Shown: one piece after another, positions 37,851 through 56,726 of the stretch
Layout of the letters: each line of letters starts with the position of its first letter
Position numbering within the stretch: the stretch's first letter is position 1
NCBI GenBank assembly: GCA_965235115.1
Contig: OZ249436.1
Location: 30,382,001-30,446,000, forward strand
Length of the DNA stretch: 64,000 nucleotides
Direction of reading: 5' to 3'
Source of the DNA: Laetmonice hystrix
Lineage: Eukaryota
Position numbers and translations under genes: made by a program
Notes under the pieces: generated by a model
Databases searched by the model: none
The model's input: only the letters and a program-made list of their open reading frames with translations
Told to the model about the DNA's origin: nothing

Positions 37851-38620
37851 AGTAGTACTGGGGCCGTTATAAAGTCCAAATCAATGTCAAGGTCATCCTG
37901 GGGTCAAGGTCACCGGTCAAGGTCACGGACGTGACCTTGACCGGTGACCTTGACACCCAGGGTGACCTTGACATTGACTAGGACTTTATAACCGACCCCA
38001 AATTTGAATTTTAGGTTTCTTTTTTAGATGATAACGTTTTTTGTACGTGAGATGAAAGTTGTAGAACGAGCACATGATGATGTGTGTTAGGTGAACGTTG
38101 TTTGATAATGAAAGTTATAGAACGAGTACATGATGATGTATGTTAGGTGAACGTTGTTCGATAATGAAAGTTATAGAACGAGTACATGATGATGTATATT
38201 AGGTGAACGTTGTTCGATAATGAACATTGTAGAACGAGTATTATGATGATGTGTGTTAGGTGAACGTTGTTTGATAATGAAAGTTATAGAACGAGTACAT
38301 GATGATGTATATTAGGTGAACGTTGTTCGATAATGAACATTGTAGAACGAGTATTATGATGATGTGTGTTAGGTGAACGTTGTTTGATAATGAAAGTTAT
38401 AGAACGAGTACATGATGATGTATATTAGGTGAACGTTGTTCGATAATGAACATTGTAGAACGAGTATTATGATGATGTGTGTTAGGTGAACGTTGTTTGA
38501 TAATGAAAATTGTAGAAGGAGCACATGATGATGTGTATGCAGATGACTTGGTAATGAGGCGAGAGGTGTGATGTCGGTTGACCATATTGGTTGACCAAGG
38601 TCAACGACCTTGAGCCAACG
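37851..38620 (+). repeat. Left terminal inverted repeat (770 bp; degenerate extension to ~38686)
   Basis: Reverse complement of 56070-56726 apart from two substitutions I could see and one extra 113-bp repeat dimer. Confidence 0.95.
38054..38535 (+). repeat. 56/57-bp minisatellite in left TIR (8 full units)
   Basis: Unit gaaagttatagaacgagtacatgatgatgtatattaggtgaacgttgttcgataat alternating with a 57-bp variant. Confidence 0.95.
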
Positions 38621-38803
38621 ACCTTGTCTGGTTGGCCTTGACCTTGCCATGACCTTGGCCGCCCCACCTGGTGGTGTGTGGGGATGTGGTGGGGGGATAC
38701 ATAGGGTGGTTCCCTTATAAAGGTTGGAAATTCTGGAAAGGAGTCATCTATCGAGTCATCTATTGAGTCACGAGCTTGAGTTCGACAACTGAGAGGGAAG
38801 AAA

Positions 38804-39887
38804 ATGGCAGCAATGGCATGCATCGAGGAGGTTCAGTTGAGCGCCACGTTGGTTTGTGAATATACGGAGTCTGTATTGAAGTTGACGAGAATGAAACCAG
38901 GAGAAGATCGCCGGACGATATATGTTCCTGTCGGTGTAGTGCAGGCGAGTTCTATGGCGGCGCGTCAGGTGGAATGTTTTGCTGGTGGCAAGGCCCAAGT
39001 GTTGATATCGACCGAAAGTTGGAAGGTGACGGTCGTCGATTACCAAGACAGGGTATACGTGTGCTACGTCAGGAAGGACAAATATGGACGGAGGGACTAG
39101 TAAGTAGAGTTTTTTTATTTTGATGTTTTGTATTAAATTCATGTCAAACGTATTCATGTAGGTCTCCACCTAAGCATCGATGTCAGATCCTAATCATTAT
39201 GTCTGGTGTTGCAGTTTGCAGTCGATGAACGTGGGCCGGTCAGAGTATTTTGCGATAGTCTCCTTAACGACGGGGGAGAAAAGGAAGGCGCCAAAGAGAA
39301 AGTTGGAATACGAAGAGGACGGGGACGCCCCTGCTGAGAAACGTATTCGTACCAGTATGAATGTGTACCGGTGGAAAAGTGTGGACGGTCAAGGGGAGTG
39401 TGTTTGCGTCTCGCCTCAGTACTATTTGGACTCTGACACCTGCCATGACGATGGCCATCTGAAGGAACCGTTAGGGGAGGAGTACACACTAGAAGTGATG
39501 ACGGAGACTATCCCCACTCAATGTGCAGAGGAATTAATTGGGACTGTGTATCGATATATTTTGAAAAAGGAGTATGACAATCGTGTGAAAACGAAATGCT
39601 ATGGTTGCATCTATGACCGATCGAGTCAGAAAGACCACATGGCCGGTTGTCAGTCTGACAAGGCCGGACTTGTGGCATGTTATGCACGATACTGTCACTT
39701 GCGCATTTCTGTACCTCGACTATACGAGGCATGTAGATATATGAACAAGTGGTATGATGCGGAGGGGTTGTATTATGCGGTCGTTTTAAACTTTATAAAA
39801 AATGTAGATCCAGCAGAGGTACTGATGTCCGCCACAGCAGCCACCGAAATGTCTCTGTACGAATTTGGTGTTCTGGATGACATGTAG
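38804..39887 (+). CDS. Polinton accessory protein of unknown function; ORFs 38804-39100 and 39180-39887, probably joined by intron 39100-39214 (~322 aa)
   Basis: TATAAAG at 38716; donor TA|GTAAGT, CTAAT branch site and TTGCAG acceptor give an in-frame join; KRKAPKRK NLS; CYGC..SQ..H...C putative Zn site. Confidence 0.65.
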
Positions 39888-40010
39888 TTGGTATGTAGCA
39901 CATTGATTCGCCATGAATTTAGTGTTCTGGATTACATGTATTTGATATATAGCACGTTCATGCGTCATATATTTGGTATTCTGGATGGTATGTAGTTGGT
40001 ATGTAGTACG
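39861..40010 (+). repeat. Three degenerate 54-bp tandem repeats overlapping the stop codon of the accessory ORF
   Basis: (ga)atttggtgttctggatgacatgtagttggtatgtagcac repeated three times. Confidence 0.8.
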
Positions 40011-40090
40011 TTGTTTTTTGGTGTCGAATTAAAAAAAAAATTGAAATCAACATATCTTGTATGTGATTTTTGTGCGTGTGTGTGGGGGTG

Positions 40091-40130
<40 letters not shown>

Positions 40131-40547
40131 GTGTGCGTGTGTGTGCGCGTGTGATTTTTATATATAGATGCCTTATATAGATGCCTTATATTTAGATGTT
40201 ACTTTGACAATGTCCGACCTGAAAAATACATAGTCCTCTACTAGAATCGAACCCCGGCCCCAAAGATTACTGCACCCATTCACATAGCATAAGGTATCAA
40301 CGCCTAAAAAGAGTGTGCGTGTGTGAAAACAGCCAGCCTGGTCCCAATCCAATTGAATCCGATTAAACAATCCAATCCTCCTCACCACTTGAACAGATAA
40401 TGCTGAGAAACTAATTGTCATGGAAGGAAGGAAGGAAGGAAGTAGGAAGGAAGGGAAAGGGAAAGGGGCAGGGGGAAAACTATTCCGGGTTTGGTCTTTA
40501 GATGGAGTCTACTGATGGCATTCTCACAGAATTCTCGGTAAAACACT

Positions 40548-54683: not shown

Positions 54684-54763
54684 TCTACTATCTATCGACC
54701 AAGTCAACGCGCTCTGAGTAACGACTCTATCGCAGAACATTAACATAGTGATGTCATTCCACT

Positions 54764-54777
54764 GTGACCTATTTATA
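54764..54777 (-). promoter_or_regulatory. Putative promoter of the ATPase/structural cluster: TATAAATAGGTCAC
   Basis: TATA box ~90 bp upstream of the ATPase ATG, abutting an AGGTCA half-site. Confidence 0.55.
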
Positions 54778-54832
54778 TGTCCTTCCCAATCAACCAATCA
54801 TGTTGGGGGAGGGACCACTGTCCTACACGTTC

Positions 54833-55846
54833 CTACTCGACCATGAACATGATATTTAACTTCCAGAGTGATTCAAAACGTCTGCCATTAAACTGTTTAC
54901 CTACTGCCATCATGTAGTCGGGCTGGAAATCATACCCTCCTGTGTTCAGAGTAAGAGGCCTCGTCAGTAAGGTTGCCCTACCTTCCAATGGCCAGGGTAG
55001 GTTAACATGATGGCGATGAACTTTAAACATTTGTCCATTTGTACAGTGCCAAACAACACCTTCAACACGTCCTTCACGCGATGCAAACCATTCCAACAAG
55101 TCATTCTTATCAGGCCTTACTCTCGTTCCATCTAACTCAATGCTGCCGTGCTGCACAAGGAAATGGACAGGTCGCTTTTTCGAGCCTAATTTATATGGAT
55201 TACCATTAACATTTGTCCCAATCAATTCCATCGTTGAACCTTGCAAGTCTTCCAAAGGTACAACAGTTAATTCCAATTCAAGGTCTGTTTGACACTTTAA
55301 AGGCCGAAGAACGAGTCCAACTCCGATATCCGAATCAATTGTGCTTGCATGCCATACGTGTGAACCATTATGACAGTCTAATGGAACCCAACCCATCGTA
55401 TGTCCTCGACTATCTGGTTGTGGAACGTCACCTATTATAGGCACACCGCCAGCTGCTTTCCAGTTCACAGGAACGTCATTAAAGTCAGTCTCCACGTTCC
55501 ATTCAAAAACACCTTTTCCCACACGTGATCCGGGTGTAAGTTCTCTCTCAAACTTTTTAAAACGACGTCTTGCAGCTTTGGTTGGCTTCCGATCGTGTCT
55601 CACCCACAACCAAGGCTTGCCTTCATAAGTTTCAATTAGGACACATGTCCCGTCAAGCTTTTCTGTTGGACGTGCCATTTGTATATTCACGTCACTTGCA
55701 GACTGTCTAAGCTTATCTGTACTCACAATACGAAACTTGTCATCGCATCTTTTCAATGACCTTTCCGCCAGTACCAACGGTTCAAACACACATTCCATTT
55801 TTGCCTCTACAACATTGTTTATCCTCTTCATGTTGTTCAGTTCCAT
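54833..55846 (-). CDS. RLIG1: RLIG1/C12orf29-family 5'-3' RNA ligase carried by the Polinton (intronless)
   Basis: MKR....KMECVF, PTEKLDGTC (motif I KxDG), PWLWVRHDRKP, WNVETDF..VP..W, PD..GH..GWVP, WH.S, TMELIGTNVNGNPY.LGSKK.P.H.L..HG, WF....G.VEGVVWHC..G..FKVHRHH..L.WP are colinear with human C12orf29 as recalled; start at 55846 or 55831. Confidence 0.92.
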   Translation of the reverse strand: MELNNMKRINNVVEAKMECVFEPLVLAERSLKRCDDKFRIVSTDKLRQSASDVNIQMARPTEKLDGTCVLIETYEGKPWLWVRHDRKPTKAARRRFKKFERELTPGSRVGKGVFEWNVETDFNDVPVNWKAAGGVPIIGDVPQPDSRGHTMGWVPLDCHNGSHVWHASTIDSDIGVGLVLRPLKCQTDLELELTVVPLEDLQGSTMELIGTNVNGNPYKLGSKKRPVHFLVQHGSIELDGTRVRPDKNDLLEWFASREGRVEGVVWHCTNGQMFKVHRHHVNLPWPLEGRATLLTRPLTLNTGGYDFQPDYMMAVGKQFNGRRFESLWKLNIMFMVE

Positions 55847-56069
55847 TTTTTTTTTCGATTCGATTCTTCGTCCAACTATCCGTTCAGTCCACACACCTCT
55901 TGTCCACACCTCACCTCTTTTATTATCATCTCATTTTGGCTACCATTCATTTACACCTGCTGACCTAGTTTTTCAGTTACCTCTCCATTACCTTTCATTC
56001 ATATCCCCCACCACACCGTCAGCTGGAACGGCCAACGTCATGGCAACGTCAAGGTCAACCGGTCAAGGC

Positions 56070-56726
56070 CGTTGGCTCAAGGTCGTTGACCTTGGTCAAC
56101 CAATATGGTCAACCGACATCACACCTCTCGCCTCATTACCAAGTCATCTGCATACACATCATCATGTGCTCCTTCTACAATTTTCATTATCAAACAACGT
56201 TCACCTAACACACATCATCATAATACTCGTTCTACAATGTTCATTATCGAACAACGTTCACCTAATATACATCATCATGTACTCGTTCTATAACTTTCAT
56301 TATCAAACAACGTTCACCTAACACACATCATCATAATACTCGTTCTACAATGTTCATTATCGAACAACGTTCACCTAATATACATCATCATGTACTCGTT
56401 CTATAACTTTCATTATCGAACAACGTTCACCTAACATACATCATCATGTACTCGTTCTATAACTTTCATTATCAAACAACGTTCACCTAACACACATCAT
56501 CATGTGCTCGTTCTACAACTTTCATCTCACGTACAAAAAACGTTATCATCTAAAAAAGAAACCTATTATTCAAATTTGGGGTCGGTTATAAAGTCCTAGT
56601 CAATGTCAAGGTCACCCTGGGTGTCAAGGTCACCGGTCAAGGTCACGTCCGTGACCTTGACCGGTGACCTTGACCCCAGGATGACCTTGACATTGATTTG
56701 GACTTTATAACGGCCCCAGTACTACT
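56070..56726 (-). repeat. Right terminal inverted repeat (657 bp; 6 minisatellite units)
   Basis: Reverse complement of the left TIR. Confidence 0.95.

Follow-up and report, generated by a model that had tools for sequence, protein, structure and literature searches.

A Polinton-like element of Laetmonice hystrix with an RLIG1-type RNA ligase gene and no recognisable adenain-type protease gene

Does an apparently intact Polinton of an animal genome encode everything that a virion-forming element of this kind is expected to encode, and what else does it carry? This question is raised by positions 37851..56726 (18,876 bp) of a stretch of 64,000 nucleotides (nt) of Laetmonice hystrix (contig OZ249436.1, positions 30,382,001 to 30,446,000; hereafter the window, which contains no N), since a preliminary description of this element, made from the sequence alone, had presented it as a complete, young Polinton/adintovirus, potentially able to replicate and form virions. 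Our analysis suggests, with a probability of about 0.6, that the element is a recently integrated Polinton/Maverick with an Alpha-type polymerase and an RNA-repair cargo, and that it is devoid of adenain. Intact young Polintons are common, and youth alone is ordinary; on our best reading, the new aspects of this otherwise ordinary young Polinton are the RNA ligase cargo and the missing protease.

The limits of the element were defined by the following features:

37845..37850, unstranded: left copy of the target-site duplication, GCTCTG, directly abutting the element
37851..38620, forward strand: left terminal inverted repeat, 770 nt, with the AGTAGT end, a palindrome and nine array units
56070..56726, reverse strand: right terminal inverted repeat, 657 nt, with seven array units
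56727..56732, unstranded: right copy of the target-site duplication, GCTCTG, directly abutting the element

Both GCTCTG copies were exact, with a chance expectation of approximately 1 in 4096 given that their positions are fixed by the repeat ends, and the element began with AGTAGT on the left and finished with ACTACT on the right, as the preliminary description had stated. Its account of the terminal repeats (about two substitutions plus a change of repeat number) was also borne out: two mismatches (38010, 38011) were present in 657 aligned bases, corresponding to 99.7% identity, and the offset of 113 nt between both repeats was associated with a 56/57-nt array of nine units on the left vs seven on the right. 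The likeness of the repeats extended over another ~54 nt at about 80%. A near-perfect palindrome of ~140 nt opens each end of the element, with a fold of −71.0 kcal/mol vs −17.8 ± 3.1 for 100 letter shuffles. The long terminal inverted repeats and the target duplication of 5-8 bp expected of a Polinton/Maverick were thus found. As a separate observation, the 9-mer TCAAGGTCA (either strand) occurs in six copies per terminal repeat, vs three in 45 kb of flank and two in the 17-kb interior, and forms part of the terminal palindrome as well; it is presumably an NR5A/ERR nuclear-receptor site.

The interior of the element was compared with 81 related loci gathered by capsid alignment (one viral locus and the best 80 of 566 metagenome matches), whose capsids were all at most 48% identical to that of the element. 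The core genes were the following (aa, amino acids):

45172..49431, forward strand: predicted long exon of pPolB, the family B DNA polymerase that is primed by a protein, starting at a CAG acceptor at 45172; Pfam PF03175, E 3.4e-46, and motifs
49969..51282, reverse strand: major capsid protein, double jelly-roll, 437 aa; structural model and Foldseek matches
51375..51746, reverse strand: basic protein of 123 aa between penton and capsid; relatives in 5 of the 81 loci
51743..52165, reverse strand: putative short penton (minor capsid protein), 140 aa; position, and matches in 38 of the 81 loci
52146..53252, reverse strand: rve integrase with a C-terminal chromodomain; Pfam rve E 8e-11, Chromo E 4e-9
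53997..54746, reverse strand: A32/FtsK-type packaging ATPase; Pfam Pox_A32 E 1.3e-5, Walker A and B present

Pattern searches in pPolB revealed the Cys and His motifs of an OTU domain (at 218 and 357, respectively, by pattern match only) together with all Exo I-III and Pol A-C motifs, so that the polymerase expected of a Polinton was represented by both the PF03175 match and the Exo/Pol motifs. The integrase of the rve type showed the D-D-E motif, and the packaging ATPase, likewise a Polinton hallmark, was present. The combination that marks Alpha-class adintoviruses, an OTU and PF03175 polymerase with a chromodomain integrase, was also found, the OTU domain by pattern only. The model of the 437-aa protein (pLDDT, predicted local distance difference test, 90.7) matched the capsids of PBCV-1 (Vp54, E 1.6e-16), mavirus (E 7.7e-16) and Sputnik in Foldseek, and the protein is therefore the double-jelly-roll major capsid protein characteristic of Polintons. 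No match was obtained with the capsid profile in a PDB sequence search, nor with the capsid in a single-sequence scan of viral contigs. Position and homology in 38 of the 81 loci lead us to assign the 140-aa ORF (open reading frame) as the penton; its model is of low confidence (pLDDT 43) and corresponds to a beta-sandwich with jelly-roll-like matches at Z 6-8, among them the mavirus penton (Z 6.2, root-mean-square deviation 3.5, 116 aligned). ORFs at this position measured 125-144 aa in seven loci and ~250 aa in most others; since the short forms recur, the short penton is a lineage trait, and a truncated penton was rejected. The order ATPase, integrase, penton, basic protein and capsid was the same in the element and in the related loci, and the 123-aa basic protein is a candidate core protein. 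Because all the catalytic motifs checked in pPolB, the OTU domain, integrase and ATPase are present, self-replication and integration of the element are plausible.

The preliminary description had listed the cargo genes as uninterrupted, and their frames were indeed open, although one of them had gone unrecognised as an RNA ligase gene:

54833..55846, reverse strand: intronless gene of an RLIG1/C12orf29-family 5′-3′ RNA ligase, 337 aa; Pfam RLIG1 E 3.1e-102

The family match was full-length (PF17720, 342 bits for a cut-off of 25, model positions 6-320 of 324). Residues K63, D65, E207, E262 and K275 were invariant in 13 of 13 aligned proteins, and K63 aligned with the lysine mutated in PDB 9c6m. 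The catalytic residues of human RLIG1 are K57, D59, E195, E250 and K263, according to PMC9931718; D65, E207, E262 and K275 were mapped to their human counterparts by motif and spacing, the human protein being outside the alignment. Judged by this correspondence, the element RLIG1 keeps all five catalytic residues, and ATP-dependent joining of 5′-phosphate to 3′-OH RNA ends is predicted. The best 120 of 128 matches were animal proteins or proteins without an organism name. Similarity to animal proteins reached E 1e-84, vs only 2.5e-12 for the giant-virus structure (PDB 9c6l), and identity to animal-like proteins was 40-61%; on these comparisons the ligase is classified as being of animal type. 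A giant-virus origin is not favoured, the giant-virus structure matching far more weakly than animal proteins. A single-sequence scan of viral contigs with RLIG1 gave no match. In a tree of 58 rows, RLIG1 grouped with two proteins (support 100/99), outside the mollusc and chordate groups, on a branch of length 0.51 vs 0.19 for its sister. The G+C content at third codon positions was 0.39 in RLIG1 vs 0.48-0.55 in the core genes. Together with the further copies and the sequence differences described below, these features would indicate that the gene was taken from the host lineage or passed between elements, and has since been under moderate constraint.

Contigs of one sample (four runs) were compared with the element interior 49545-56150; the sample is possibly the window's own source, and the contigs are thus not independent of it. 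At least three further RLIG1 copies were found in this sample, 84-89% identical and colinear over up to 493 nt, with a likeness that ended within a few codons of the ORF ends. Contig depth, which gives no copy number, was much the same in the element and in these other copies. RLIG1 might accordingly be a module common to several Polinton families of the host, one of which may supply the protease. This reading, which we consider possible but on balance unlikely, agrees with the colinearity of the other copies with the intronless gene and with their divergence right at the ORF ends; furthermore, an extra, separate integrase-like contig piece near 52337 shows that the sample contains at least one further, more distant related element. 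On the contrary, no contig joined another RLIG1 copy to a viral gene, and the sister proteins P0001, P0002 and P0241 were on contigs matching no collected capsid or ATPase contig in size. In this size comparison, based on the longest contig per protein and on 20 capsid and 10 ATPase clusters that were expanded, 36 of the 49 capsid sizes recurred among the 49 ATPase sizes and 0 of the 5 RLIG1 sizes appeared in either set, a hint that RLIG1 is not on contigs of the nearest database elements.

It is rather unlikely that RLIG1 is simply a passenger, that is, a chance host retrocopy or duplicate that is still open through recent capture. Such an origin would be in line with the lack of a match in the 81 related loci (the majority of which are not long enough to cover the gene's position), with the result of the size matching, with the long branch and with the many amino-acid differences from the other copies. 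On the other hand, the frame in the element has no stop at ~12% nucleotide divergence from the nearest copies, the likeness is confined to the ORF, all the catalytic residues are kept, and synonymous changes are in excess: among the 32 differences listed in the ORF (40 of 195 rows), 13 were synonymous, 19 were not and 0 were stops, a synonymous share of 13/32 vs 22% expected at random.

The second new aspect of the element concerns the region that follows the capsid gene:

49432..49968, unstranded: non-coding stretch that separates the pPolB stop from the capsid stop, the two genes converging; in related loci the protease lies here

In those loci, an ORF of ~140-175 aa usually begins at the capsid stop codon, and 9 of the 14 post-capsid ORFs tested matched Pfam Peptidase_C5 at E < 0.1, three of them passing its cut-off. 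A protease profile built from 49 post-capsid ORFs (threshold 30 bits) reached at least 30 bits in 52 of the 54 loci that include the end of the capsid gene and no less than 450 nt after it (49 of them had built the profile; the 27 loci without that room were excluded), and the two loci without protease showed a different gene order. Leave-one-out values of 102-193 bits were obtained in seven tests, and a control outside the training set gave 100% probability. The same profile scored 0.5 bits against the six frames of the element read through stops and 3.5 bits against the whole window. A protease hidden in an unassigned ORF was rejected, the seven small ORFs giving probabilities below 1% in all cases. 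A PDB sequence search with one related-locus protease ORF gave no match. In three of the four runs a single contig covered 49545-53428 across the capsid stop, no loose contig end was present there among the ends listed (13 more were not listed, and contigs drop rare variants), and the protease-less layout was the only one found among sample contigs at least 82% alike. Since the profile score was 0.5 bits, the small ORFs were negative and the contigs were unbroken across the site, the absence of the protease is real for the common form of the element's family. The label "complete" of the preliminary description has consequently to be withdrawn: an adenain/Ulp1-type protease, a typical though non-universal component of the Polinton core that also belongs to the definition of Alpha-class adintoviruses, is encoded nowhere in the element or in the window. 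In a separate observation, the ATPase directly follows the capsid in the related loci L046 and L050, which have no protease in the contig and do not lie close to the element in the capsid tree.

The loss of the protease has precedent, as the enzyme was identifiable in 74% of 72 Polintons and absent from Tlr elements in PMC4028283, in which protease loss is mostly tied to the loss of the whole virion module. With regard to the earlier proposal that the element may replicate and form virions, its first half remains plausible given the motifs present, whereas mature virions made by this copy alone are unsupported, because it lacks the protease encoded behind the capsid gene in almost every related locus; independent formation of such virions appears doubtful. 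A fully autonomous provirus that makes mature virions, either because adenain is dispensable in its lineage or because processing is carried out by the OTU domain of the polymerase, is therefore an improbable reading. In its favor, the genes of the capsid, the putative penton and the ATPase are unbroken and conserved, the polymerase retains the OTU Cys and His, Tlr elements lack a protease although they encode both capsid proteins (PMC4028283), and the exclusive presence of the protease-less layout in contigs at least 82% alike indicates that this layout is not a one-off assembly error. Its difficulties are the protease found in 52 of the 54 comparable loci, which PMC8502044 and PMC4028283 describe as the virion maturation protease, and the function proposed for the OTU domain in PMC11161782, which is to release the terminal protein and not to mature capsids.

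The age of the insertion and its support in the sample were assessed with the same contigs. Three letters differed between the contigs and the window in 49545-53428, and four letters plus one homopolymer length in 55600-56099; overall, the sample-contig version of the element differed at ~7 letters in 6.6 kb. They may stem from a further, almost identical copy or allele, from a different individual or from mistakes in the window sequence. Overlapping contigs reproduced the order of the genes between the capsid stop and RLIG1, the latter included, except for a 46-nt hole (53429-53474). The CpG ratio was 0.89 in the element vs 0.74 and 0.56 in the flanks. No stops were found in pPolB, major capsid protein, penton, integrase, ATPase or cargo genes, as the preliminary description had indicated, although the start that it assumed for the pPolB ORF falls inside an apparent exon-intron series (see below). 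Altogether, the exact duplication, the 99.7% identity of the repeats, the open frames, the near-identical sample contigs and the higher CpG ratio support a recent insertion, and the recent integration proposed earlier is in this way supported, short of proof. An artefact of assembly, or an old relic that has become fixed, is a very improbable reading: a few letters of the window disagree with the sample contigs in each run that covers them, but outside the hole the contigs reproduce the gene order, both copies of the target site agree fully and the terminal repeats are 99.7% identical.

In the mechanism that we propose for this recently integrated, adenain-less Polinton, the protein-primed polymerase would copy the excised linear genome from the repeat ends, and the rve integrase would insert a genome copy, leaving the 6-bp duplication (as known for the family; PMC11161782 and 10.1101/2023.08.22.554363). 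The protease-less element would spread as a transposon, or would make particles that mature with the protease of another Polinton family or with none. RLIG1 would have been captured from the host lineage and retained to rejoin tRNA or rRNA that nucleases of stress or defence responses cleave during element activity, like T4 Rnl1 in phage.

Several points weigh against this proposal. The host phylum suggested by RLIG1 (an invertebrate, probably a lophotrochozoan) depends on one tree, in which the protein falls, together with two annelids, in a grade of poor resolution, and the further RLIG1 copies may be host loci or parts of other elements. Selection on RLIG1 is weakly shown, because 19 of the 32 differences change the protein, the rows are a subset of the 195 and several copies are mixed. 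No kinase or phosphatase partner of RLIG1 was found in the element, so the usual breaks with 2′,3′-cyclic phosphates would need host enzymes first, and the repair role is putative. Finally, the 13 nearest capsids (100% local support) come without DNA context, and the loss of the protease may belong to the copy, the family or the clade.

If the proposal is correct, the locus is relevant to two questions. What RLIG1 naturally does in animals is not settled, and the authors who discovered it predicted that its viral versions act against host immunity; a captured, intact animal-type RLIG1 in a 19-kb element would be a compact test of this idea in an animal system. PMC11494293 describes known viral RLIG1 homologues predicted to counter host immunity, and the structure paper (10.1101/2024.04.24.590974; PMC11494293) predicts that viral homologues repair RNA, by analogy with T4 Rnl1. 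The protease, in turn, is counted among the evidence for Polinton virions, and surveys that start from it overlook elements of the present kind; an element that lacks the protease and is otherwise pristine bears on whether this enzyme is needed, borrowed or dispensable. A broader proposition, to which we assign a low probability, is that small integrating invertebrate DNA viruses have dropped the protease, stay active and have captured RLIG1 as an RNA-repair counter-defence across several Polinton families of one host. If true, a strategy like that of T4 Rnl1 would exist in an animal virus, which implies an RNA-cutting antiviral response in an invertebrate lacking a described one. We found no paper placing RLIG1 in a Polinton, a precedent for which may be held in subscription papers, Repbase annotations and bioRxiv supplements, all outside the reach of the search. 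A text search for "ligase" was negative in the main texts of PMC8502044, 10.1101/2024.03.25.586562, 10.1101/2025.02.07.637071 and PMC11131425, and in one supplementary file of PMC8502044; "Polinton" is absent from the text of the RLIG1 paper, whose Figure S3 virus list was outside the text search.

Comparison with known systems places these features in context. As described in PMC4028283, 10.1101/2023.08.22.554363 and PMC11161782, Polintons/Mavericks share with the element a size of 13-25 kb, long terminal inverted repeats, a 5-8 bp duplication, an OTU-bearing pPolB, an rve integrase, a packaging ATPase, a double-jelly-roll capsid and, one gene away from the capsid, a penton, which in the element is putative. 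The element differs from them in its lack of a maturation protease, in a 140-aa penton without the usual insertion, in the RLIG1 and leucine-rich-repeat cargo and in a polymerase gene whose 5′ part seems to be spliced. The adintoviruses that have an Alpha-class PolB (Starrett et al. 2021, PMC8502044; defined in 10.1101/2024.03.25.586562) resemble it in animal host, OTU and PF03175 polymerase, chromodomain integrase, hexon, penton (putative in the element) and FtsK-type ATPase, the element being known from its genes alone. However, their survey was built on adenain-bearing contigs (PMC8502044), and the element has no adenain; neither a PLA2X nor a gasdermin-like gene, both adintovirus features, was detected in it by Pfam. 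The ligase shares the KxDG motif, the other catalytic residues and the full-length Pfam match with human RLIG1 (PMC9931718) and the Yasminevirus homologue (PDB 9c6l; PMC11494293). The Yasminevirus homologue is set in a giant virus, in contrast to the 19-kb integrating setting of the animal-type copy described here, which has no gene for a polynucleotide kinase partner beside it. Nematode and insect Mavericks with cargo (10.1101/2022.07.12.499685, 10.1101/2025.02.07.637071) are similar in that they capture host or mobile genes, remain mobile and have sometimes lost a core gene; the cargo reported there consists of proteases, kinases and transposons, and no transfer between species is shown for the element.

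The apparent exon-intron series upstream of the long pPolB exon comprises the following feature:

43023..45038, forward strand: seven candidate small exons, predicted 5′ part of pPolB (246 codons); CAG/GT borders, boundaries set by eye

The candidate exons measure 66, 147, 75, 129, 102, 150 and 69 nt; all are in phase 0, multiples of three and open in frame, six are acidic, and the last acceptor (45172) keeps their frame. Six of the seven candidate introns are 131-179 nt long, with 69-81% A+T. Within the first 62 codons of the 1481-aa pPolB ORF lies an AT-rich stretch with GT and CAG as its borders. The gene seems, from these borders and frames, to begin with seven small phase-0 exons, with the start of the 1481-aa ORF inside the exon-intron series; such a spliced 5′ end would illustrate how annotation by ORFs alone misreads genes of this kind. 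A unit of 206-208 nt, consisting of one acidic exon and an intron, is tandemly duplicated at 43727-44154 (91% identity), and two of the candidate exons fall in this local duplication.

The remaining genes of the element were these:

38804..39100, forward strand: ORF of 98 aa, no family found (ORF call, family searches)
39180..39887, forward strand: protein of 235 aa, unnamed family; 63 relatives, conserved Cys/His
42246..42833, reverse strand: cargo of 195 aa, small leucine-rich-repeat protein; Pfam LRR_1 E 0.0099, below the cut-off
53288..53626, reverse strand: ORF of 112 aa, no family found (ORF call and Pfam)
53623..53949, reverse strand: ORF of 108 aa, conserved beside the ATPase; relatives in 5 of the 81 loci

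The 235-aa protein, probably metal-binding to judge by its conserved residues, had a weak match in 1 of the 81 loci and gave nothing in an Atlas search; it was rejected as a protease (hhalign probability 0.2% against the protease profile). Three tandem units of 54 nt (39863-40016) overlap the stop codon of its gene. No recognisable gene was found in the 2.2 kb of the element between 40050 and 42240, a region with microsatellites and short palindromes, in which spliced genes of small size or host DNA acquired by capture could lie concealed. The leucine-rich-repeat cargo shows signal-like and membrane-like stretches in a layout like that of glycoprotein Ib-beta/IX, and its Atlas feature score of 0.93 is taken as a lead. 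In the related packaging ATPases P0342, P0344 and P0364, a C2H2 zinc finger at the N terminus precedes an Ala/Pro-rich repeat whose length varies.

An Rfam scan gave sub-threshold matches only. The insertion interrupts the head of a tRNA-like repeat (37815-37850 and 56727-56900), with an A-box-like word at 37828 on the left and a B-box-like word at 56762 on the right; we take this repeat to be tRNA-derived, of the short interspersed nuclear element type, and the words to be A- and B-box patterns. A second copy of the split repeat was absent from the window and from the related loci. An ORF of 101 aa with a Myb/SANT-like DNA-binding domain (E 1.8e-7) lies at 36934-37239, 600 nt to the left of the insertion. 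Further away, the 380-codon open frame at 19766-20905, with a LicD-family match (E 8.5e-15), is a single-exon host gene of the fukutin/LicD type, and palindromic units of 113 nt are arrayed in direct and inverted orientation at 15375-15766. On the right side, an inverted pair of ~197 nt with 79% identity (57836-58692) is probably an old miniature inverted-repeat transposable element, and the exon pairs 59133/62007 and 60864/63402, which are related, point to a host gene duplicated in tandem.

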